In this document: in pieces, positions 42,095 to 53,398 of the stretch
Position numbering within the stretch: the stretch's first letter is position 1
Layout of the letters: the number at the start of each line of letters is the position of its first letter
Source of the DNA: Oligoflexia bacterium
GTDB lineage: Bacteria > Bdellovibrionota > UBA1018
DNA length: 64,000 nt
Direction of reading: 5' to 3'
Assembly: GCA_963758495.1 (NCBI GenBank)
Contig: CAVWVI010000004.1
Location: 256,001-320,000 of the forward strand
Position numbers and translations under genes: made by a program
The notes under the pieces: generated by a model
What the model was told of the DNA's origin: nothing
Seen by the model: only the letters and a program-made list of their open reading frames with translations
Database searches by the model: none

Positions 42095-44273
42095 AGTTCC
42101 AATCTCTACATTAGCTACCATTTGCAGCAGGGTATCTAGCTACTATCCAGATGCTAAACTCGATCTCTTAAAAAAAGCTTATGCTTTTGCAGACGAAGCT
42201 CACAGGGGTCAACTCAGATCGAGCGGCGAACCTTACATGATTCATCCCATCGCTGTTGCACAAACGCTTGCAGACTTACATCTGGATATTCTGAGCGTTG
42301 CCACAGGACTTCTCCATGATACCGTTGAAGATACACACGCTACTTTACCACAGATAGAAAAGGAATTTGGAAAAGACATTGCGGAACTCGTAGATGGAGT
42401 GACCAAACTTTCTCAAATCACATTTAAAACTTCGGAAGAAAAACAGGCAGAGAATTTTAGAAAAATGATCTTAGCCATGGCGAAAGACATTCGAGTGATT
42501 CTCGTTAAACTGGCCGATCGCTTAAACAATATGCGAACGTTGGAGCACCTGGCTCCTCTAAAACAGAAAATCATTGCGCAGGAAACTCTAGACATTTACG
42601 CCCCGATCGCTAACCGACTGGGCATTAGCTGGATTAAACTAGAATTAGAAGATCTTTGCCTCAGATACTTACATCCGGACGTTTATTATAAACTTGCACA
42701 AAAAGTAGCTAAAACTAAACGTGATCGAGAAAAATACATTGAAGAAGTAACCACGATTATCGAAGAAAAGCTTAAAGACTATGACATTAAAGGTCAAGTC
42801 ACAGGGAGAGCTAAACATTTTTATTCAATTTTTAAAAAAATGGAACGTCGAAAAGTGGATTATGAAGAAGTCTTCGACGTCATCGCCTTCAGAATTGTCG
42901 TAGATAACATTACTGAATGCTATAAGTCCTTAGGCGTTATTCATGCTACCTACAAGCCCGTTCCAGGCCGATTCAAAGATTACATTGCCATGCCAAAAGC
43001 AAATGCCTATCAGTCTCTCCACACTACGGTGATCGGGCCCCATGGAGAAAGAGTGGAAATACAAATTCGCACTCAAGACATGCATCAGGTAGCTGAAGCA
43101 GGAATCGCAGCTTATTGGAAATATAAAGAAGGAAAATTTGATAGTCGATCCAGAGAAAATGTAGAATGGGTCAATAGACTTCTTGAATGGCACAAAGATT
43201 TATCGGATCCGAATGAATTTCTAGAAACTGTCAAGATAGACCTCTTTGCAGAAGATGTTTTTGTTTTCACCCCAAAAGGTGGGGTCAAACAACTGAGCTA
43301 TGGCGCTTCACCCTTAGATTTTGCTTATGCAGTCCATACTGACATTGGTAATAAGTGCGTTGGCGCCAAGGTAAACGGTAAAATCGTACCACTCAAGCAT
43401 CGACTCAAATCCGGTGATACAGTCGATATTATTACATCCAACTCCCAAACTCCCTCTAAAGACTGGTTAAAGATTGTTAAAAGTTCTCGGGCAAAAGCAA
43501 AAATTCGCAGCTACATTAAAGAGCAAGAAAGAGATCGAGCATTAGAACTAGGGAAAGAAATTTTAGAAAAAGCGCTTCGACCTTATAGCCATACTCTCTC
43601 GAAACTTGAAAAATCAGGAGAGTTACTCAAAGCAGGGACCGAAATGGGTACCCGAACTGCGGAAGAACTCTACATCGCGATCGGTTATGGTCGCGTGACC
43701 ACCCAAGACTTGATTCCTAAATTAATTCCGAAAGAGGCACTCGAGAAGCGAATTGAAGCTGCAAAAGCTGGAGACCAGAGTTTTCTAAAACGTGTCTTCA
43801 ACGCCGCTAAAAAAAGAAGTGAGGCTCGGAATGCAATCAAAGTTGCTAATTTAGATGATGTCCTCATCCGATTTGGTCGATGCTGTAATCCTCTACCCGG
43901 TGATAGCATTATGGGATTCATTACTCGTGGCAGAGGAGTGACTGTTCATACAAGCACTTGCACAAAAGCTCTGGATAATGATCAAGAACGCAGAGTGGAT
44001 GTACAATGGAATATTTTAGGAAAAGGCAACATTAAGAGGCATGTCCGAATTCGCGTTGTCACTTTAGATGAACCGGGCTTACTTGCAATTATGTCTCAAA
44101 CAATTACTTCTTGTGGAATTAATATTGCTTCTGCCAATATCCGAACCACTAAAGATAAAAAAGCAATTGCTCTTTTCGACGTAGAAGTCGGGGATCTGGT
44201 TCAATTACAAAAAGTTACCAGTGCACTAGAGAGTAAACAAGGGGTCATTAGTGTAGAACGGCTCCGATCTTAG
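42087..44273 (+). CDS. rel: Bifunctional (p)ppGpp synthetase/hydrolase (long RSH)
   Basis: R.SGEPY..HP; intact HD (LHDTVED); RFKDY; YQSLHT; TGS, CC and ACT domains. ATG at 42087 after AGGAG. Confidence 0.95.
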   Translation: MPKVPISTLATICSRVSSYYPDAKLDLLKKAYAFADEAHRGQLRSSGEPYMIHPIAVAQTLADLHLDILSVATGLLHDTVEDTHATLPQIEKEFGKDIAELVDGVTKLSQITFKTSEEKQAENFRKMILAMAKDIRVILVKLADRLNNMRTLEHLAPLKQKIIAQETLDIYAPIANRLGISWIKLELEDLCLRYLHPDVYYKLAQKVAKTKRDREKYIEEVTTIIEEKLKDYDIKGQVTGRAKHFYSIFKKMERRKVDYEEVFDVIAFRIVVDNITECYKSLGVIHATYKPVPGRFKDYIAMPKANAYQSLHTTVIGPHGERVEIQIRTQDMHQVAEAGIAAYWKYKEGKFDSRSRENVEWVNRLLEWHKDLSDPNEFLETVKIDLFAEDVFVFTPKGGVKQLSYGASPLDFAYAVHTDIGNKCVGAKVNGKIVPLKHRLKSGDTVDIITSNSQTPSKDWLKIVKSSRAKAKIRSYIKEQERDRALELGKEILEKALRPYSHTLSKLEKSGELLKAGTEMGTRTAEELYIAIGYGRVTTQDLIPKLIPKEALEKRIEAAKAGDQSFLKRVFNAAKKRSEARNAIKVANLDDVLIRFGRCCNPLPGDSIMGFITRGRGVTVHTSTCTKALDNDQERRVDVQWNILGKGNIKRHVRIRVVTLDEPGLLAIMSQTITSCGINIASANIRTTKDKKAIALFDVEVGDLVQLQKVTSALESKQGVISVERLRS

Positions 44274-44310
44274 CACAACGCACCGCAACTATAGTAAGCA
44301 TCTGGATTCA

Positions 44311-45537
44311 TTGTTATTTTCAAAAAATGAGTCAAAAAAAAGCAAATTCGTATTGACTGCCATCAATTTTGAGGGAAAAATGATGGCCATATATACAAGA
44401 TCGCTCAAGCCACCTAGTAAGAGTTTCTTTTTATTTGGCCCAAGGGGAACCGGAAAAAGTACGTGGGTAAAACGGCACTTCCCAAAAGCCGCCTATTTTG
44501 ATCTCTTGAGAGCGAATGTTTTTCTTCGCTTTCAGCAAGATCCCACCCTCTTTAGAAAGGAAGTTGAAGTTTTTTCCTCTGGAAGTTGGGTAGTAATTGA
44601 TGAAGTTCAAAAACTTCCTATTCTATTAGACGAAGTGCATTCCCTCATTGAGGATAATGGCCTTAAGTTTGTGCTGACTGGCTCAAGCGCGAGGAAAATA
44701 AAACGACAAGGAGCAAATCTCCTTGCTGGCCGAGCAATTACTAAATATTTTTTTCCACTGACGCATGAAGAGTTACAAGCTGACTTTGTACTTGAAGAAA
44801 TTTTAAAATTTGGTTCTCTTCCGTCAGTTCTAGCCGAAAAAACTGTGGAGGGAAAAATTGAGTTCTTGGAATCTTACACTACAACTTATCTGAAAGAAGA
44901 AATTCAGCAAGAGGCTGCTGTAAAAAATCTTTCATCTTTCACTCGATTTTTAACAATTGCGGCTATTTCGAATGGTCAAAAAATTAATCTTTCAAATTTA
45001 GCACGAGATGCGGGCGTTGCTCGTCCGACTGCGCAAGGATATTTTCAAGTGCTTATTGATACATTGGTAGGAAGCATACTTCCTGCGTGGTCCATAAAAT
45101 TACGTATCAAGGAAGTTGATCACCCGAAATTCTATTTCTTCGATTCCGGAACGGTTCGATCTCTTTTGGATCGACTGCGAGATCCCTTAGATTTAATCGA
45201 AAAAGAAATATTATTTGAAACTTATATTCTTCATGAATTAAGAGCACATATTTCTACTCGATCTTTGGGTGGAGAGTTCTACTATTGGGGAACCCACGGT
45301 GGTCTTGAGGCTGATTTTATTTGGGCCAGGGGTAAAAGTGCAATGGGTTTTGAAATTAAATCTAGCCAGCGTTGGAAGTCTGAATATTCTAGTGCCTTAA
45401 GAATTTTACTGGATGAAAAAAAAATTCAGAAAGCCTTTGGAGTTTATCTGGGGTCAGAAATTCTTTCAGATCGAGGAATTCTTATTTTACCCCTAAAAGA
45501 ATTTTTTAAACGACTCCAGAATAATGAAATATTTTAA
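44311..45537 (+). CDS. AAA_14/DUF4143 ATPase
   Basis: GPRGTGKST; IDEVQ; LTGSS; LAGR; PKFYFFDSG; EADF; EIK. True start probably near 44380. Confidence 0.88.
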   Translation: MLFSKNESKKSKFVLTAINFEGKMMAIYTRSLKPPSKSFFLFGPRGTGKSTWVKRHFPKAAYFDLLRANVFLRFQQDPTLFRKEVEVFSSGSWVVIDEVQKLPILLDEVHSLIEDNGLKFVLTGSSARKIKRQGANLLAGRAITKYFFPLTHEELQADFVLEEILKFGSLPSVLAEKTVEGKIEFLESYTTTYLKEEIQQEAAVKNLSSFTRFLTIAAISNGQKINLSNLARDAGVARPTAQGYFQVLIDTLVGSILPAWSIKLRIKEVDHPKFYFFDSGTVRSLLDRLRDPLDLIEKEILFETYILHELRAHISTRSLGGEFYYWGTHGGLEADFIWARGKSAMGFEIKSSQRWKSEYSSALRILLDEKKIQKAFGVYLGSEILSDRGILILPLKEFFKRLQNNEIF

Positions 45538-45729
45538 CGCTCAAGTATCTTACTAATGATAATCTATGCAGTACTTGTCAACAACCCCTAAAGGAACTGC
45601 TTACATACATTCGTATTACACTTTTTTGATGGAGACCCCAAAAAGTGTACAAGCATTAGTGAAGTGTTGATCAAACTATAAAAAGTAGTTTTGTGCAAAT
45701 TTTAAGTCCTTGAATTTAAAAGGTAAAAT

Positions 45730-45746
45730 CTGGCACATCAGTTGCT
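45730..45746 (+). promoter_or_regulatory. Sigma-54 (-24/-12) promoter of the toxin operon
   Basis: CTGGCACATCAGTTGCT, near-perfect TGGCAC-N5-TTGC(A/T), about 40 bp upstream of the ORF. Confidence 0.8.
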
Positions 45747-45784
45747 TTATATTAAATAACTAATATTTATATTTATTTAATATT

Positions 45785-47755
45785 ATGATCGGAAAAATTA
45801 TGTTTATGAAGTTGATTAAGCACCTAACTATCTCTTTAGACACGATAAAAGTAGGAATCTTGTGTACATCGTTTGCTCTAATCTCTGTACCTCAAGCTCA
45901 AGCAATATCAAATTCGGCAAATGATCGCGGTCTATCTAGAATTTTTCAGTCAGTGCCTTCACAACCCTCACAGCAGAGGTCGACGCCTGGTCCGGTTTAT
46001 AACCAACCTGGGCCATCAAATAATGTTCGAGTTCGCCCGCAATTTAATGTCCCTGGGCCACAGCAGTCTTCGAACATGTATGGATTTTTTGGGATGCAAC
46101 AAGTTCAAATGTTTAATGCCCAACTTCAACAGCAACAATTTAATTACCAGCTCCAACAACAACAATTTGATGTGATGCTTCGGCAACAGGAAAATGAGTA
46201 TCAAAAATTACTTACACTCGCAAGGCAACTAGGAGGACTTGAGGATCAGGTCGAGCTGTTAACATGGGCAATGAAAAATTTTAGAGATTTTGTGAAACAA
46301 CATCGACATAGACGTCAGACTACATCTGATGTGGCAGAGTTTTCACAAGTTCTACAAAATTTTAATAATCCTCAACGACGAATTGAAGGAGAACAACAAC
46401 GGCGTAGTGACACCGAGAATCAACGAAGAATTGAAGCTGAAAGACAGCGTCGACTTCAAATTGAAAGGCAACAGGAGATTGAAGCTGAAAATCAACGTAA
46501 TCGGGAGTTAGAAAGAAAACAAAGATATGAAGCTGAAGAACGTCGACTTGAAGAGTTAAATCAAAAAAGAATTGAAGAAGAGCGAAGACAACTTATTGCT
46601 AAAGCTGAGCGGGCAGCAATTGCTGAACAGAAAAAAATAGACAGCGAATATATGCAAAAAATGAATAAATTTAATAGACTCGAAGCCCTCGTTGACACGC
46701 CTCCATTAGAAAGTGAACAACGACCAAGAATCGGTGAAGATTCTAGTCCATGGCAGAAAAAGCGTCTTGCAATGCTTGAAACTATGGATAAGCCACTTAT
46801 TCCTAATCCTGAGGATGGTTTATTTCTTGGGAGTGCTGTTGGACTTGGGAAGTTTGCACTAAAAGGTATAGCTAAAGCAGCAATCTCTGGTGCAGGCAAA
46901 GTATTTTGCTTTCCTGGTGAAACCCCGATTTGTATAAAAGATGATAGCGTGATGGGTTACCATTCGGAACCGATTGCATCGATACAAGTGGGTGACACTG
47001 TTGCAAGCTGTAATCTAGAATTAGGTGAAGAGGCTTGTGAATGCCGTCAAGTACAACAGGTATTTAAAAATACCGCTGACCACTTGATTCAGCTTTCTTT
47101 TGATGGAAAAATATTAAAAACTACAGATGAACACCCATTCTATGTTGTAAATAAAAAGGATTGGGTTGAAGCTCGATATCTTCGAATTGGGGATCAACTT
47201 CAGAGCATCTCAGGAGAGATTGTTCTTTTAGATGATATCAGTGAAGAGTATGGTCAATTTGATGTTTATAATTTAGATGTCCAAGGGAATCATAATTATT
47301 ATGCGGCTGATGTTTTAGTTCACAATTGTAATGAAGGTTCTAAAGTTGCAGCTGAACTTGTGGCTAGTAATGCACTACGACGAGCTGAGATATTTGCTGC
47401 TATAGAGAGTAGAGCAGCGAGAAAGGATTGGCCTAAGGTTGTCAAAACGGTGGAGGGGAGGAATGTTCTTCAAGATCTTTTCCATCTAAAAAGCCAGAAA
47501 GGTTTGACAGATATTTCCGATGGAACTAGAAAACAAGCCGAGGTGATTGGTGAAGCTTGGGTTAATGGAAAGTACGTTAGACGATTTGATTTAGGTAATG
47601 GCGGATATGGCATAACTGATGGAACTAGAACGTTTCGTCTGCAATTTAAACCTAAGGCTGGAGCTTGGAAAAGTAATTTTCAAGAAAATGTAGTCAGTGA
47701 TAAAGGTATTATTACTGAAATAAAGAACGTCCACATGTCAATTACAGACATGTAA
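45785..47755 (+). CDS. Polymorphic toxin: signal peptide, Gln-rich region, coiled coil, Hint domain, C-terminal toxin tip
   Basis: Signal peptide ending AQA; Hint from CFPGET (46907) through TTDEHPFY to VLVHN/C (47326); ~140-aa variable tip; small downstream gene. Start may be slightly later. Confidence 0.88.
   Translation: MIGKIMFMKLIKHLTISLDTIKVGILCTSFALISVPQAQAISNSANDRGLSRIFQSVPSQPSQQRSTPGPVYNQPGPSNNVRVRPQFNVPGPQQSSNMYGFFGMQQVQMFNAQLQQQQFNYQLQQQQFDVMLRQQENEYQKLLTLARQLGGLEDQVELLTWAMKNFRDFVKQHRHRRQTTSDVAEFSQVLQNFNNPQRRIEGEQQRRSDTENQRRIEAERQRRLQIERQQEIEAENQRNRELERKQRYEAEERRLEELNQKRIEEERRQLIAKAERAAIAEQKKIDSEYMQKMNKFNRLEALVDTPPLESEQRPRIGEDSSPWQKKRLAMLETMDKPLIPNPEDGLFLGSAVGLGKFALKGIAKAAISGAGKVFCFPGETPICIKDDSVMGYHSEPIASIQVGDTVASCNLELGEEACECRQVQQVFKNTADHLIQLSFDGKILKTTDEHPFYVVNKKDWVEARYLRIGDQLQSISGEIVLLDDISEEYGQFDVYNLDVQGNHNYYAADVLVHNCNEGSKVAAELVASNALRRAEIFAAIESRAARKDWPKVVKTVEGRNVLQDLFHLKSQKGLTDISDGTRKQAEVIGEAWVNGKYVRRFDLGNGGYGITDGTRTFRLQFKPKAGAWKSNFQENVVSDKGIITEIKNVHMSITDM
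46956..47346 (+). repeat. ~390-bp direct repeat, copy 1 (Hint-coding DNA)
   Basis: Matches 48142-48532 (offset 1186); about 7 substitutions counted by eye. Confidence 0.95.
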
Positions 47756-47763
47756 GGTGAATT

Positions 47764-48090
47764 ATGAGTTATTTTAAAGTTAAAGACATAAATATTATTA
47801 CTGAAATACACGACGAAGAATATAAAAATTTTTATATTCAGGCGCACTGTGAAATTATCGAGGCAACGAATCCTATAGGAGGCGAAGCTATTATAGTCAA
47901 CATCGTTAGTCCACTCTATTTGGAGAACAATCTTGAAAATTCTATTAAATTCGGTCGTGGATTAATTCTGTGTAATGATTATGATAAACTCAAAATAATG
48001 AATCAGCTTCAATCTTTAATCGAAAAAAGTAAATCAAATACTTGGCAAGAACTTTCAATATATATTGAAAAATATTTTAATTGGGTCTGA
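47764..48090 (+). CDS. Immunity protein, Imm8-like
   Basis: Directly after the toxin; G.E...V.IVSP..L...GRGL.L...YD...I...L...I....TW.EL...I..YF.W resembles Imm8. Confidence 0.7.
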   Translation: MSYFKVKDINIITEIHDEEYKNFYIQAHCEIIEATNPIGGEAIIVNIVSPLYLENNLENSIKFGRGLILCNDYDKLKIMNQLQSLIEKSKSNTWQELSIYIEKYFNWV

Positions 48091-48141
48091 TATAGTAATT
48101 AATATTAAATAACTATTATATAAAACGTAATAACTCGGAGA

Positions 48142-48532
48142 GTTACCATTCTGAACCGATTGCATCGATACAAGTGGGTGACACTGTTGCAAGCTGTAAT
48201 CTAGAATTAGGTGAAGAGGCTTGTGAATGCCGTCAAGTACAACAGGTATTTAAAAACACTGCTGACCATTTGATTCAGCTTTCTTTTGATGGAAAAATAT
48301 TAAAAACTACAGATGAACACCCATTCTATGTTGTAAATAAAAAGGATTGGGTTGAAGCTCGATATCTTCGAATTGGGGATCAACTTCAGAGCATCTCAGG
48401 AGATATTGTTCTTTTAGATGATATTAGTGAAGAGTATGGTCAATTTGATGTTTATAATTTAGATGTCCAAGGGAATCATAATTATTATGCGGCTGATGTT
48501 TTAGTTCACAATTGTAATGAAGGTGCTAAAGT
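48142..48532 (+). repeat. ~390-bp direct repeat, copy 2 (5'-truncated Hint)
   Basis: Near-identical to 46956-47346; divergence starts a few codons after HNC. Confidence 0.95.
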
Positions 48533-48854
48533 AGCCGCTAGAGCTGCCTTAGCCGAAAGCACTAGTGCAGTACAAGCATTAAATCTAAGTAAATCACTTG
48601 CTAGTGAAGCACAAATAGCTGAGGTAGGAACCAGAATCGCAGGTGAAGGTGCAAAAGAAATATTTCGAGATGCGTTAAAAGCGGCTGAGAGATACGGTGG
48701 CTCAGCAAGTGATTACGTGAAAATGAGTAGTTCTGCTTTTGCAGCTAAGGACGGAATGAAGATGTCAACTCATTGGATTCAAAATATCGTAACAGGAAGT
48801 CAACACGAAGTGAAAACGATTGTAAATGAATTTGTAAGATCTAGAAAAAATTGA
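48142..48854 (+). CDS. Orphan toxin cassette: truncated Hint plus alternative toxin tip
   Basis: Frame open from an in-frame TAA at 48096-48098, with no ATG before the Hint fragment (ORF track uses GTG 48174). Lacks Hint Cys1. Tip IAGEG...FRDA...YGG....VKMSS...THWIQN..TG..HEVK. Confidence 0.8.
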
Positions 48855-49216
48855 GGTTTAGAATGGAACATCTATCACATAATGAATTCGTATCAAAAAA
48901 AAGATGTGAATTAAGAGAATTGGCCAATAAATTAATTAATAATGACATAGACGTTATTGATGGCTGTAGACACATTGTTGACATATTTAACCAAATTGAC
49001 TTTCCTGAGTCAGACACTTATTTCTACTTTGTAGGCATTGTCTCGCAGACTGATGATATACCAAGAGGCACTTATCGAGACTTATGCGCTCCTTTATTCT
49101 TAAAGAAAAAAGATGAAGAAGCAACCGACTTCATTCGACAAATAAAATCTAATCTTATTAAAAATTGCTATGAGCTAATTACCGCTCTAAAGAATCAAGA
49201 TAATGAATGCCCATAA
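48851..49216 (+). CDS. Putative immunity protein for the orphan tip (DUF2489-like)
   Basis: Abuts the orphan tip; A..LI...ID..DGCR.I...F.GI.SQTDD.P.G..R pattern. ATG start probably 48863. Confidence 0.65.
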   Translation: MRFRMEHLSHNEFVSKKRCELRELANKLINNDIDVIDGCRHIVDIFNQIDFPESDTYFYFVGIVSQTDDIPRGTYRDLCAPLFLKKKDEEATDFIRQIKSNLIKNCYELITALKNQDNECP

Positions 49217-49448
49217 AATGCATTTTATACCTAGGGACACTTTTCCACATAAAAATCCGCACGGTCATGTAGAGGAACTAAATAGTGAATTATATCTTTA
49301 ATGAAATCGAAATTAATACTTTTAAATTAATCCTAACTTACGCCGAATATGAATCATTATTTTCAAAACTTGTGAATAAGGGTGCCGTTAGCGGAATTGC
49401 TTTCAATGAGGTCCTAGCTCAAGTAAAATAAAAGAAGGTCTAAATAAG

Positions 49449-49772
49449 TTGGGAAATCTTGTTAATCAATTATCATATCAGAGCTCAGATCAAAATAAAA
49501 TTAGAATGCAATTAGAAGGTGTACATGAGATTTTACAAGACTACAGGGACCATTTAGATGATATAAATGGTCCTCTCGGTGTAGAACATTTAAATATTAT
49601 CGAAAAAAGTTTAAATGTGGCGGATCAAAATTTAAACAAAGCTGCTGAAAATGTTTCTCGCGCGGATACTCAGAATGTATCCTATTATTTAAAAAATAAT
49701 ATTAAAGAGTTAAAAAACAAAATAAATGAGTATAGGTTAAATCGGTTGAAAGCAGAGCACATGCCGAATTGA
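49449..49772 (+). CDS. Hypothetical helical protein, possibly a gene fragment
   Basis: 107-aa ORF in AT-rich DNA, TTG start, no recognisable motif. Confidence 0.4.
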   Translation: MGNLVNQLSYQSSDQNKIRMQLEGVHEILQDYRDHLDDINGPLGVEHLNIIEKSLNVADQNLNKAAENVSRADTQNVSYYLKNNIKELKNKINEYRLNRLKAEHMPN

Positions 49773-49903
49773 CACTCATGTTACTACCCGTGTTTGTATT
49801 TCCTTCATTACAAACAGAATCGCTATTCCCATTTGTAGTGGTTGTGTAAGTCCCCTCTGCAATTGTCCATACAATATTATTTTTAACTACTAAGACCATG
49901 CAG

Positions 49904-50725
49904 TTAACCGGCCATGAGGGTCACCATTTCAAGCAATCCACCCACAGTGAGTGACGGCTCCAAACCTACTGGATAACTATTTATAGAATCCTCATTTTTG
50001 ATTAAAACACTTGGCATTCCAGCATTTTTAGCAAATAAAATATCAGACTCGAGCCTATCACCCACCATCACACAATCTTCAACTTTCCAATTAAGTTTAT
50101 TTAATATAATTTCTAACATCAAAAGATTGGGCTTTCCAACTACAACTGTAGGTTGCCTTTGAGAAGCTCCAATAAAAGCACCTACCACTGCACCACATCC
50201 AGGCAAAAGAACTCCATTGTCTGTTGGAAAATAAGCATCTTGATTACAAACAATAAAGGGAACGCCACGAATTAATGCCCTTAGACCTTGTGAAATTTTC
50301 TCATAATTAAAATCTGGATCAAGCCCAACCACAAAAGCGTTACATTTCTCTGGTGAAACAAGTCTGATCCCTTCGCTTTGCAAGAGACTCTTCAGATTGT
50401 CTGTTCCAATAGCATAAACTCCTTTTTCTAATAGGCTGGATTGGCTCTTTAAATAAAATACCAGGCCATTAACAGAAGTCAGTACGTCTTCGAGATGACA
50501 AGAGATACCCAAAGTGAGTAACTTTTTATGAATATCAACGTTGGATCGGCTAGAGTTATTGGTAACAAATGCTATTTTTTTCTTGAGTTGTTTGAGCCGA
50601 TGGATTGCTTCTATTGCGCCAGGGATAGCTTTCCTCCCACGATAGATCACTCCATCCAAATCAATAATAAAACAAGATCTAGATAGAATTTTCTCTAACG
50701 AAGAAATCATATAATCATGATCCAT
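49904..50725 (-). CDS. HAD-IIA (NagD-like) phosphatase
   Basis: DLDGVIY; VTNNS; PGCG; GKP; MVGDRLESDI. Confidence 0.9.
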   Translation of the reverse strand: MDHDYMISSLEKILSRSCFIIDLDGVIYRGRKAIPGAIEAIHRLKQLKKKIAFVTNNSSRSNVDIHKKLLTLGISCHLEDVLTSVNGLVFYLKSQSSLLEKGVYAIGTDNLKSLLQSEGIRLVSPEKCNAFVVGLDPDFNYEKISQGLRALIRGVPFIVCNQDAYFPTDNGVLLPGCGAVVGAFIGASQRQPTVVVGKPNLLMLEIILNKLNWKVEDCVMVGDRLESDILFAKNAGMPSVLIKNEDSINSYPVGLEPSLTVGGLLEMVTLMAG

Positions 50726-50855
50726 TGATTCAATTATACCATCTTCTCATTTTCTATTGATGAAAATTATGGCGCAAACTATTATTTCAAGTCAAGAATA
50801 ATCCTACTAGGCATTCGGATTCAAGGAGAACTGACTGACTGAAAAAATGTATTTT

Positions 50856-51785
50856 TTAAAATACCTTACTCAAATTAATCGCATTATAATTTACGAAATG
50901 AAATAAATCTTCTAATTCATCATTCGAGCTTTTATCCATTACAAATAATTTCTCTTCGAATTTTGAATATTTACTACAATCATTGTCCCATAACCACGTA
51001 AGAAAACCAGAAAGTTTTTCTGCTTCATACTGATCTTGAGCGTATTTTTTAAAATCTTCAATAATCAGATTAAATTCATTAAAGGATTTAATATCTTGTA
51101 TTTTTGAAAGAGGAAAGTCTCTCAATTTAGCTATACTTTCTATGTAGTTTTCAAATTTTGGTACAAATACAGGCGTATAACCATGAGATTCATACCACCC
51201 CTTTCCATTTTGCATGATTTTTAAAAACTTGAGATGAACGCTTTGATTATTTTTATGGCATTTCACTTTAGAAGCATCCACAAGACTCACACGAGAGAGC
51301 GATAAGCTCTTACTGATCGCGTCCACTAAGTCTAAAATAAAACTACCTTTACGTTCATCAGGAAGGGGACAGTGAATTCGACGATCAGTTTTAAGAGTAA
51401 GTAAATCACCAAATCCTTCAGAAAGATCAATCTTAAACAAAAGACACGATAACAGTACAATATCATAGGAACTGTCCCCACCTTGAGCGCCAGATAATAT
51501 GAGATCAACCGTATTGCCATCAAAAGTATAATGTAGCTGAGTAGAGATACCTTGAAATTTTATGTCGATCAACGGGTATTGGGGATCTTTTTGACCTTCA
51601 AAATCCTTTACTAAACTAGAAATAATTTGCTCTAACGTAAGGGCCGTCGGCGAACTACGTCCATAACTCTCTGAACTCGAATTTAAATCATCTGTATAAA
51701 AACGGAAGGAAGAATCTCCACCTGCAAAAACAGAAAAAGGAATCGCAATAAAAGCCGCAAATAGACATACTTTAATAAAATTCAT
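50856..51785 (-). CDS. Secreted hypothetical protein, possible GNAT-like core
   Basis: Signal peptide MNFIKVCLFAAFIAIPFSVFA from ATG 51785; KGSFILDLV...VSLVDAS...GKGWYESHGY. Confidence 0.6.
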   Translation of the reverse strand: MNFIKVCLFAAFIAIPFSVFAGGDSSFRFYTDDLNSSSESYGRSSPTALTLEQIISSLVKDFEGQKDPQYPLIDIKFQGISTQLHYTFDGNTVDLILSGAQGGDSSYDIVLLSCLLFKIDLSEGFGDLLTLKTDRRIHCPLPDERKGSFILDLVDAISKSLSLSRVSLVDASKVKCHKNNQSVHLKFLKIMQNGKGWYESHGYTPVFVPKFENYIESIAKLRDFPLSKIQDIKSFNEFNLIIEDFKKYAQDQYEAEKLSGFLTWLWDNDCSKYSKFEEKLFVMDKSSNDELEDLFHFVNYNAINLSKVF

Positions 51786-51802
51786 AAAAAGATCTCGATC
51801 CA

Positions 51803-52696
51803 TCACAAAAAAGTCAAACTCAGCCAAAGAGAAGCCCATGTGTTTTGCAATGTAGGAGCGGTCAATAAATAATTATTGATAAACACAGAAGCCCAGACAG
51901 TTTCAGAAACATTCATACTGATTCCATTTTGAGTATAGGGCATCCCTGGATCATCCCAAATAAAAGTGGTCCAAGGAGCATTTCTCATGTTTTGGAATGG
52001 CATCGTAACGTAATGTTGAGTTGAAAATTTTGAATTGATCTCATAACTCACCCAGGGCATGAACCACCCATAAGCCCGCATATTTCCTTGAGCATTGGGC
52101 GTGAGATAGCTCGTCGTATATTCTTGAATCATGCCTAAACTCCAATGAGATTGAGGAAAGGCGTAACTCGTATTTGTTCTTATGCCGACTTCAAAAGAAT
52201 TATGAGTTGAGTAGTAGTTATCTACGTCATATTGGACAAATAGATCATAGGTTGTGGATAATTGAGGTACATCGAAAACCTCAGTTCTCCGAATGGCAAA
52301 GCGAGGATGACGAGGAAGAAACTGTATTCCTTGAAAATCAATGTTTGAATTTAAAAATAGAAGCATCCTTTGCCAGTAGACAACTCGATAATGAGGGGCG
52401 ATTTCATAATCTGTCCAAAAAATATGAAAGATGCTGGTTGGAGAAAATGATCTTCCGTTGAACCTGGGAACAGAGCCAGACTCACCGTTTAAGGAAGGCG
52501 TCATGAATTCAGAAAAAGTCCTTACCCTGAGCTTTTTCTTGATGAGTTGCCAGGTGCTTTCGTTTTCAGATGTTTGAGTCAGGGAAATCGGATCTGCATA
52601 GACAGCAGGACTGTAGACATTCGCCAACGTAAAAAAAACCGAGGAAAGGCAAATCAAATGAAATTTTAATTTTTTGATTTGATCCAAGTCCCACAT
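51803..52696 (-). CDS. Hypothetical outer-membrane beta-barrel-like protein
   Basis: Signal peptide; aromatic-rich alternating strands; C-terminal WLSLTFL. Confidence 0.6.
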   Translation of the reverse strand: MWDLDQIKKLKFHLICLSSVFFTLANVYSPAVYADPISLTQTSENESTWQLIKKKLRVRTFSEFMTPSLNGESGSVPRFNGRSFSPTSIFHIFWTDYEIAPHYRVVYWQRMLLFLNSNIDFQGIQFLPRHPRFAIRRTEVFDVPQLSTTYDLFVQYDVDNYYSTHNSFEVGIRTNTSYAFPQSHWSLGMIQEYTTSYLTPNAQGNMRAYGWFMPWVSYEINSKFSTQHYVTMPFQNMRNAPWTTFIWDDPGMPYTQNGISMNVSETVWASVFINNYLLTAPTLQNTWASLWLSLTFL

Positions 52697-52873
52697 GGCT
52701 CTACACCTGCCTCCCTAGGTAAAAGTAAATCGGAAAAAGAATGTTCCCGTATTTTACTGCAATCTATCTTTTACGCGGTTAGTCGCAGAAAATCAAGAAT
52801 ATTTGAGTGTTTTCGTTTTAATTTAAGAAATGATGATCTAAATAGCCATAAGTATATGATATAACTAATGAAA

Positions 52874-53398
52874 CTACTCTCCTGACGCAGGCCAAAGACC
52901 GACTGCAGGATGCTCACCTTTTTCAAGGGAATTTCTAAACGCATTAAACTTCAAGCTTTGATCAGATCGAATCTGATTGATATGAACTTCCTGCTCTTTC
53001 ATTCGTCGAACTCTTTCTTCCACTAGCAACTTATGAAAGGCATCCCTTCTTCGTATAAAGTCATGCATATAAGTTCGACGTTCAGTTCCTTTTGTGTGCT
53101 CTTCAAAAAACTTATGTCGTGCATCATTCTCTAACTGCCGCCACTCTTTTTGACGAATATCTTGAGATGCCTTGAGTTCGTCTAATTCAGACTTGTAACG
53201 ATGCTTCAGTGCCTGCACTTGAGTTTTTTGAGCCCGTACAAATTCCTTTAAGGAAATTGAAAACTCAGTTTGAGTCAAACTAGGGGTCGGTGATGCAGCA
53301 CATAACAGAAGCATTGCAAATGCAAAAAAATATTTTGAATACATTCGAATCCTAATTGAAACCGACCTCATCCTATGTTTTGACAAGCTACGCTCCAA
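52874..53398 (-). CDS. Hypothetical exported coiled-coil protein
   Basis: Hydrophobic leader then charged helices; follows recJ on the same strand. Start uncertain. Confidence 0.6.
   Translation of the reverse strand: MERSLSKHRMRSVSIRIRMYSKYFFAFAMLLLCAASPTPSLTQTEFSISLKEFVRAQKTQVQALKHRYKSELDELKASQDIRQKEWRQLENDARHKFFEEHTKGTERRTYMHDFIRRRDAFHKLLVEERVRRMKEQEVHINQIRSDQSLKFNAFRNSLEKGEHPAVGLWPASGE

Follow-up and report, generated by a model that had tools for sequence, protein, structure and literature searches.

A probable polymorphic toxin-immunity locus of an Oligoflexia bacterium, built around a conserved Hint domain

A locus at positions 45,730 to 49,216 of a 64,000-nucleotide (nt) stretch of an Oligoflexia bacterium genome (contig CAVWVI010000004.1, positions 256,001 to 320,000; the whole stretch is called the window here) very probably encodes a toxin-immunity system. 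The favoured reading of the whole chain of events, given a probability of about 0.52, is a Sec-exported, MafB-like toxin system in which tips are swapped through Hint DNA and the tip is released by Hint cleavage. The conserved unit of the family is the Hint domain, which has a complete set of splicing residues; both points are absent from an earlier sequence-only reading of the same DNA. The features of the locus are listed below in window coordinates.

45785..47755, plus strand: full-length toxin gene, 656 amino acids (aa) from the first ATG; the likelier start, M6 at 45800, gives 651 aa.
45785..45904, plus strand: predicted Sec signal peptide with cleavage after A-Q-A (residue 40), judged by eye and hydropathy.
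45905..46384, plus strand: stretch rich in S/P/Q/N and in Gln, followed by a segment predicted to be helical; defined by composition and common only to the C3 paralogue described below.
46385..46684, plus strand: E/R/Q-rich stalk, a predicted coiled-coil or single helix as suggested by composition.
46817..46906, plus strand: Gly/Ala/Lys amphipathic pre-Hint segment; maximum 19-residue Kyte-Doolittle mean (KD19) of 1.28.
46907..47329, plus strand: Hint (PT-HINT), with Cys1 C375, the Cys pair C409/C418, T447-x-x-H450, H513-N514 and the +1 Cys, C515.
47330..47755, plus strand: Ala-rich linker and tip 1, which fits the Ntox7 motif; a predicted ribonuclease (RNase) of the BECR (barnase, EndoU, colicin E5/D, RelE) fold.
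47764..48090, plus strand: immunity 1, Imm8 family (PF15586, 43 bits against a cut-off of 27).
48116..48854, plus strand: orphan cassette, a 5'-truncated Hint copy and tip 2; 95.5% repeat over 424 nt.
48863..49216, plus strand: likely immunity 2, 117 aa, no Pfam family, named from its alignment to the gene behind a Paraburkholderia tip-2 homologue.

The gene order that had been read from the letters of the DNA (toxin with Hint and tip 1, immunity 1, truncated Hint with tip 2, immunity 2) is seen in the open reading frames (ORFs), with PT-HINT and Imm8 over their cut-offs. Together with the Hint DNA repeat, these two matches support the assignment to a polymorphic toxin-immunity locus with an orphan cassette. 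A 142-aa C-terminal region follows the Hint in the full-length toxin, and a predicted immunity gene lies directly downstream of each tip. The M6 start is favoured by the database entry, which is 651 aa long, and by the C3 paralogue, which lacks M1.

The Hint scores 55.5 bits against a PT-HINT cut-off of 27.7. It spans C375 to H513-N514 and is followed by C515, and it holds the full class 1 intein residue set (C375, T447/H450, H513-N514, C515). A profile made from 11 close Hints was run on 1.84 billion representatives, and the best 150 of the 159 matches at E<=1e-30 were taken. On rescoring with a profile lacking its first and last four columns, 49 domains reached at least 113 bits, followed by a gap to 91. 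These 49, which include the 11 seeds and four domains from this genome, form the clade discussed here. Its named members are metagenome-assembled genomes of Oligoflexia and Bdellovibrionia (the five best named genome matches), and most of the 49 carry no taxonomy. Among the order's genomes, 8 of 116 match the Hint at E<=1e-25, all from this bacterium's own family, with one marginal match that has Lys at +1. Every one of the 49 clade Hints has Cys at +1, against 13 of 212 other Hints; Cys1 is kept in 44 of 46, the block B motif T-x-x-H-P/L-F in 41 of 49 and the internal Cys pair in 37 of 47.

What stands on either side of the clade Hint varies. The 35 carriers of at least 80 aa fall into 28 blastp clusters, mostly unrelated, with some fragments among them. 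A hydrophobic N-terminus is present in 26 of the 35, a charged helical stretch in 26 and both in 19, and a few carry known domains (RCC1, ricin-B, haemagglutinin repeat). Tips include Ntox24, Ntox33, Ntox8, colicin E3-like and WHH nucleases, and the family, as defined by the Hint clade, adds tip-immunity pairs that have no Pfam families. Segments that are Pro-acidic and then Gly/Ala, similar to the one in the window, precede the Hint in unrelated carriers, haemagglutinin-type included. Of the 28 tip-bearing members, 5 have a hydrophobic Gly/Ala segment ahead of the Hint and 17 have it behind; none has one on each side, and 6 have none at all. The Hint tree, with 4 of 23 branches starred, is mostly unresolved and supports no order of events.

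Some clade proteins are of a partner type, with a head (RCC1, ricin-B, Cys-rich or unassigned), the Hint and a tail of 12-29 aa; most have an Ala-rich stalk. At L002, L018 and L019 such a short-tail partner gene stands directly before a second signal-bearing gene, the toxin being intact at L019 and broken or truncated at L002 and L018. A Hint-less version of the partner occupies the same position at L047. No partner-type gene adjoins the window locus or the C3 paralogue, and the partner-type stalks of relatives gave no tblastn match in this genome. The partner genes are a lead and carry no weight in the overall verdict.

Three further arrangements were recorded. The third Hint locus of this genome (L002:9703-12506; G000:C4 about 710,700-713,500) encodes a Cys-rich secreted protein with a Hint ending His-Asp-Cys and a 29-aa tail, followed by a broken signal-peptide gene, a Hint remnant with a tip, a 66-aa gene and an IS110-type transposase fragment. 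A clade member at L049:5593-8250 has two tandem Hints and a tip; the secreted protein of 569 aa encoded before it has no Pfam match. L131:203-1063 and L137:1333-2319 are minimal members in which the signal peptide nearly abuts a Hint without Cys1, followed by Cys+1 and a tip (Ntox8 in one).

The carrier, residues 1-374, was compared with what the sequence-only reading had said of it. That reading had recognised no delivery domain, and indeed there is no Pfam family at E<=1 and a single NCBIfam match, at E 0.67, far under its cut-off. The composition it described was confirmed by counting: residues 41-100 are S/P/Q/N-rich, 100-135 are 42% Gln, and 200-300 are 23% E, 19% R and 13% Q. Of its Gly/Ala hydrophobic segment before the Hint, the Gly/Ala part stands (43% Gly+Ala in residues 345-374) and the hydrophobic part is moderate, the best 19-residue Kyte-Doolittle mean being 1.28 with four Lys in the segment. 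The segment is amphipathic, and a canonical transmembrane helix at 345-374 was rejected. The N-terminus looks like a signal peptide by eye and hydropathy, with a basic n-region, a hydrophobic core (best 12-residue hydropathy 2.1) and the A-Q-A site. A lipoprotein signal was rejected, inspection having found no lipobox.

A paralogue of the toxin was found in the same genome on contig C3 (about 954,231-956,684, minus strand). Its carrier is 71% identical over 300 aa, and 83-85% identical over the stretch encoded at 45905..46384. Its stalk is about 145 aa longer, its Hint is 94% identical, and its tip and downstream gene are different ones, which upholds the expectation that the carrier stays constant as the tips vary. 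DNA similarity between the two loci begins at 45615, 170 nt upstream of the toxin gene. Over codons 6-200 the pair differs by 30 amino-acid-changing and 17 silent codons, against 9 and 11 in the Hint. Beyond this pair the carrier was not found. When residues 20-215 were searched against 5.8 billion proteins (360-1148 aa), 2 of 625 candidates matched, both from this genome. Across the class the carrier is in 1 of 127 genomes, its own; in metagenome contigs 0 of 68 pattern matches were confirmed, and no instance was found in phage records. Among PDB sequences it matched only the ATP synthase b coiled coil, at E 0.6-0.9, and an ESM Atlas query gave no usable match, which indicates neither absence nor novelty. 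A conserved delivery domain is unsupported, since the carrier is confined in these searches to the toxin and one same-genome paralogue; its sequence seems to behave as a loosely constrained, lineage-specific stalk. Next to the C3 paralogue lies a secreted-looking ankyrin, Sel1 and RING protein (L001:7636-9699). Ankyrin and Sel1 give dozens of tblastn matches genome-wide, an abundance that may point to a eukaryote-associated life.

Tip 1 is predicted to be an Ntox7-type RNase. Residues D612-G-T-R-T-F-R618 and N631 fit the Ntox7 motif (DGx+xhR and N), and the motif is kept in a 68%-identical homologue, P0019. Tables 2-3 of PMC3482391 give this motif and name Imm8 as the main predicted immunity partner of Ntox7; the call was made because the motif and the adjoining Imm8 match that published predicted pairing. 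Across the phylum, tip 1 has a match in 1 of 401 genomes. It has none in plasmid records, and no PDB profile came under E 0.1. In the ESM Atlas its neighbours, none above 0.89, are clusters of toxins, which can serve only as a lead. The phylum sample contains four other Imm8 loci, and at one of them the end of the protein encoded upstream is weakly similar (24%).

The orphan cassette begins with a copy of the Hint DNA: 48116-48539 repeats 46930-47353 and is 95.5% identical over the 424 nt. The copy lacks the first strand, Cys1, a carrier and an ATG, and the C-terminal region that follows it, 113 aa long, differs from that of the full-length gene. Matches to this tip 2, at 41-46%, were found in 9 plasmid records, among them the C-terminal ends of a Leptospira Rhs protein and a Paraburkholderia DUF637 protein. 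Immunity 2 aligns with the gene behind the Paraburkholderia DUF637 protein with a score of 80, the highest of 300 shuffles being 59, so that tip 2 and a related downstream gene recur together in one of the two records inspected. Both immunity genes are low in GC (0.28 and 0.32, against 0.42), which fits imported cassettes. The tip and downstream gene of the C3 paralogue also recur, at 75% and 41%, in cassettes that resemble a long haemagglutinin-type carrier in their Hint and linker, and this recurrence suggests that tips likely travel between carrier types via the Hint.

Taken together, these observations can be arranged into the following chain. The precursor would cross the inner membrane by its signal peptide and exit through an unlinked type II secretion system (T2SS), with Imm8 guarding the producer's cytoplasm. 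The low-complexity, charged helical carrier may serve as a lineage-specific stalk or anchor of variable length. The Hint would process itself: cyclisation of Asn514 would free the linker and tip, which would then begin with Cys. Reduction may have to come first, as outside the cell a disulfide could lock Cys1 to Cys+1. Tip 1, predicted from its motif and immunity partner to be an Ntox7-type RNase, would act in the cytoplasm of a competing bacterium. The layout of the two Hint copies is seen, and a crossover between them would join the carrier to tip 2 and immunity 2; tips may also move among the unrelated carriers of the Hint clade. Release by cleavage is favoured by the type A bacterial intein-like domains (BILs), which mostly cleave according to the account of them in PMC4031507.

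The genome offers a route for export. A gsp (T2SS) operon lies about 55 kb from the locus, with GspD at 493 bits against a cut-off of 351 and with C, D, E, F, G and further pseudopilins, and we infer that the toxin may use it. The genome, which is 92% complete, also has further secretins and PilB/Tad-type ATPases. Neither the carrier, by Pfam, nor the genes beside the locus show a leader or component of the T5SS, T6SS, T7SS or PVC type. Searches of it for VipB/TssC and VirB4-type proteins gave no match, and their positive controls matched; a TpsB search gave none in the genome, its controls likewise being without a match. Elsewhere in the genome (L151:2390-7672; G000:C4 about 780,400-785,700) a 1760-aa Rhs-repeat protein without a Hint stands behind a 782-aa gene of unassigned kind.

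Several results weigh against this chain. Tip 1 has no Pfam match, its structure model (helix, then strands) has a predicted local distance difference test score of 45.9, and a fold search returned nothing at Z>=5. The Imm8 protein ends in W-V instead of the WEa motif. For the Leptospira tip-2 homologue, the gene that follows it showed no match to immunity 2 (score 28). The window carrier has no evident receptor-binding part. PMC4287609 reports that MafB export is independent of the only characterised Neisseria secretin, which makes the T2SS route here an assumption. Finally, cleavage alone leaves three things unexplained: the Cys+1 in 49 of 49 clade Hints, the junction Cys of a Hint-less allele described next, and the Gly/Ala segment on either side of the Hint.

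These three things are where splicing, a serious alternative, comes in. The Hint might be a working class 1 mini-intein that excises itself and joins stalk to tip as its main outcome; the mature toxin would then be stalk, Gly/Ala helix and tip in one chain, and the Hint DNA would be a recombination handle. The count of Cys+1 was made with the profile stripped of its terminal columns, and together with the conservation of Cys1 and block B it speaks for a splicing Hint. BILs, in the part of PMC4031507 that deals with them, are said to lack the +1 nucleophile, and one of them spliced only after Tyr+1 was changed to Cys; active-site disulfides, according to the same part, can gate splicing. A second line of support comes from a Hint-less gene, L047:3113-4906, with which two clade stalks align ungapped, placing Cys1 onto its Cys414 (junction residues excluded). 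Among 533 diagonals this alignment comes first for 2 of 30 carriers and second and third for two more, and the gene reads like an empty allele of the relatives' stalks. The third line is the Gly/Ala segment, which is found before or after the Hint and never on both sides; splicing would make the two forms equivalent.

Each of these lines has its counterweight. The empty allele is a single gene and concerns relatives, the window carrier ranking 401 of 533. The 49 clade Hints share descent and hence are not 49 independent events. The control Hints are dominated by Lys+1 (129 of 212) and not by Rhs, CdiA or MafB toxin Hints, in which Cys+1 is common. Cys+1 also occurs in two actinobacterial Hints, two clade members without Cys1 keep Cys+1, and in one clade member of this genome Asp replaces the terminal Asn. 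A disulfide (redox) lock would conserve both cysteines as well. On this balance, cis splicing as the main outcome, in an Oligoflexia lineage whose toxins would be organised around such a Hint, is less likely than not. Perhaps a quarter as probable as splicing itself is a further step at loci where an adhesin gene with an RCC1 or Cys-rich head stands before the toxin gene, in which released Cys-ended tips could attack the thioester of partners with adhesin, stalk, Hint and short tail, and so be ligated in trans to the adhesin.

The sequence-only reading had suggested a new delivery class in which the hydrophobic segment enters a target membrane and the Hint releases the tip. Spelled out as a model, the carrier would be a dedicated delivery device whose pre-Hint Gly/Ala segment brings Hint and tip through that membrane ahead of their release. 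It is true that the carrier is kept between the paralogues from 170 nt upstream, that the pre-Hint segment is kept despite the change in stalk length, and that a hydrophobic segment adjoins the Hint in 22 of the 28 tip-bearing members. This device nevertheless appears improbable: the carrier is in 1 of 127 class genomes and was found in neither the metagenome nor the phage searches, its codons changed more than those of the Hint, the segment is amphipathic with four Lys, a hydrophobic segment follows the Hint in 17 of the 28 members, and similar segments precede the Hint on unrelated carriers. A decaying or chimeric relic, in which tip-immunity cassettes of haemagglutinin- or Rhs-type origin were joined to a secreted, low-complexity protein of this lineage that is never delivered, would suit the broken third Hint locus, the 107-aa gene fragment and dispersed repeat at the flanks, and the carrier's weak constraint, but is very improbable given two intact paralogues with different tip-immunity pairs, all catalytic residues intact, and 19 of 35 clade carriers with both a hydrophobic N-terminus and a charged helical stretch.

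The locus represents a polymorphic toxin family of an uncultured Bdellovibrionota lineage with the Hint, not the carrier, as its conserved hub; through it, tips likely move between haemagglutinin-type carriers and short stalks with a signal peptide. Tests of whether the Hints of toxins cut or splice are rare, and the clade provides a sharp test through its Cys+1, its Hint-less allele and its either-side segment. If the Hint splices, protein splicing would have a physiological job in toxin maturation, and the clade would supply compact, secretion-tolerant inteins. Trans ligation, if true, would shuffle targeting and payload at the protein level besides Hint-DNA recombination.

The flanks of the locus agree with the earlier statement that no secretion partner gene adjoins it. 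By Pfam, the upstream neighbour is an AAA_14/DUF4143 ATPase (window 44311-45537), and downstream lie a 107-aa fragment and a haloacid dehalogenase (HAD) hydrolase. The ATPase has about 10 paralogous matches in the genome, and a similar gene stands beside an unrelated Hint protein in L008. The 107-aa ORF (49449-49772) shares 42% identity with an inner stretch of a signal-bearing protein of 856 aa (L001:4848-7418) encoded about 3 kb from the C3 paralogue, and looks like a remnant carried along with the toxin locus. A dispersed repeat of about 40 nt (window 45567-45604), with 20 other matches in the genome, lies just before 45615, where similarity to the C3 paralogue starts. It may be a miniature inverted-repeat transposable element or an insertion-sequence end, presumably like those of the IS200/IS605 family. 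Three minus-strand genes (327, 297 and 174 aa; window 50856-53398) have hydrophobic N-termini and no significant Pfam or NCBIfam match. Rfam gave no match within 44000-53000.

Toxins of this general layout have been described. The Sec/T2SS class of polymorphic toxins, as outlined in PMC3482391, consists of a signal peptide and HINT with no neighbouring secretion genes, and section 37 of that paper describes the lineage-specific N-termini MAFB-N, Microscilla-N and APD1/2 and expects more. Because the Sec/T2SS and class 1 MafB layouts (PMC3482391, PMC4287609) already join a signal peptide, a lineage-specific N-terminus and a Hint, and the carrier was found in no other genome, the proposal of an undescribed delivery class is not supported for this carrier; the class is a known one. 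A literature search, judged by titles and abstract openings, found no description of Oligoflexia or Bdellovibrionota Hint toxins or of polymorphic-toxin splicing. The Rhs, CdiA, LXG/WXG, PAAR and MuF carrier types were rejected, Pfam showing no signature of them and NCBIfam giving only the match at E 0.67.

A close likeness is that to class 1 MafB/MafI (PMC4287609): a signal peptide (a predicted one in the window toxin), a lineage-restricted repeat-free N-terminus, a BIL/Hint, a variable tip, an immunity gene, and downstream tip cassettes that start in the BIL region. Membership was rejected, the window locus having neither DUF1020/MAFB-N (no Pfam at E<=1) nor the upstream mafA-like lipoprotein gene that marks classes 1 and 3, and its type of N-terminus is low-complexity, charged-helical and different among family members. 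The Microscilla-N and APD1/APD2 toxins (PMC3482391) share the signal peptide, which is a predicted one here, the HINT, the lack of secretion neighbours, an N-terminus constant across paralogues whose tips vary, and Ntox7 with Imm8. Their N-termini are conserved, mostly globular and lineage-wide, whereas the common element here is a Hint clade on 28 carrier clusters.

The predicted make-up of the window toxin, with export, a stalk of coiled coil, a HINT and a tip that varies, is also that of Streptomyces UmbC (PMC11062931). The window toxin differs in having no ALF repeats (Pfam), no evident twin-arginine translocation motif and no UmbA/UmbB genes at its locus. In some relatives an RCC1 or Cys-rich gene that encodes a further stalk and Hint stands upstream, and the window locus has none. 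A PDB sequence search gave 2lwy as the best match and 8w20, an umbrella toxin, as the second, and umbrella-toxin membership was rejected on the absence of an ALF match and the confinement of the 8w20 likeness to the Hint. With type A BILs and class 1 inteins, as characterised in the corresponding part of PMC4031507, the clade shares Cys1, the block B T-x-x-H and the terminal His-Asn; it differs from them in its invariant Cys+1, conserved internal Cys pair, lack of an endonuclease domain and secreted-toxin host. Altogether the locus is very probably a polymorphic toxin locus of the known Sec/T2SS, MafB-like kind, in a family for which these searches found no description and which is defined by its Hint clade.

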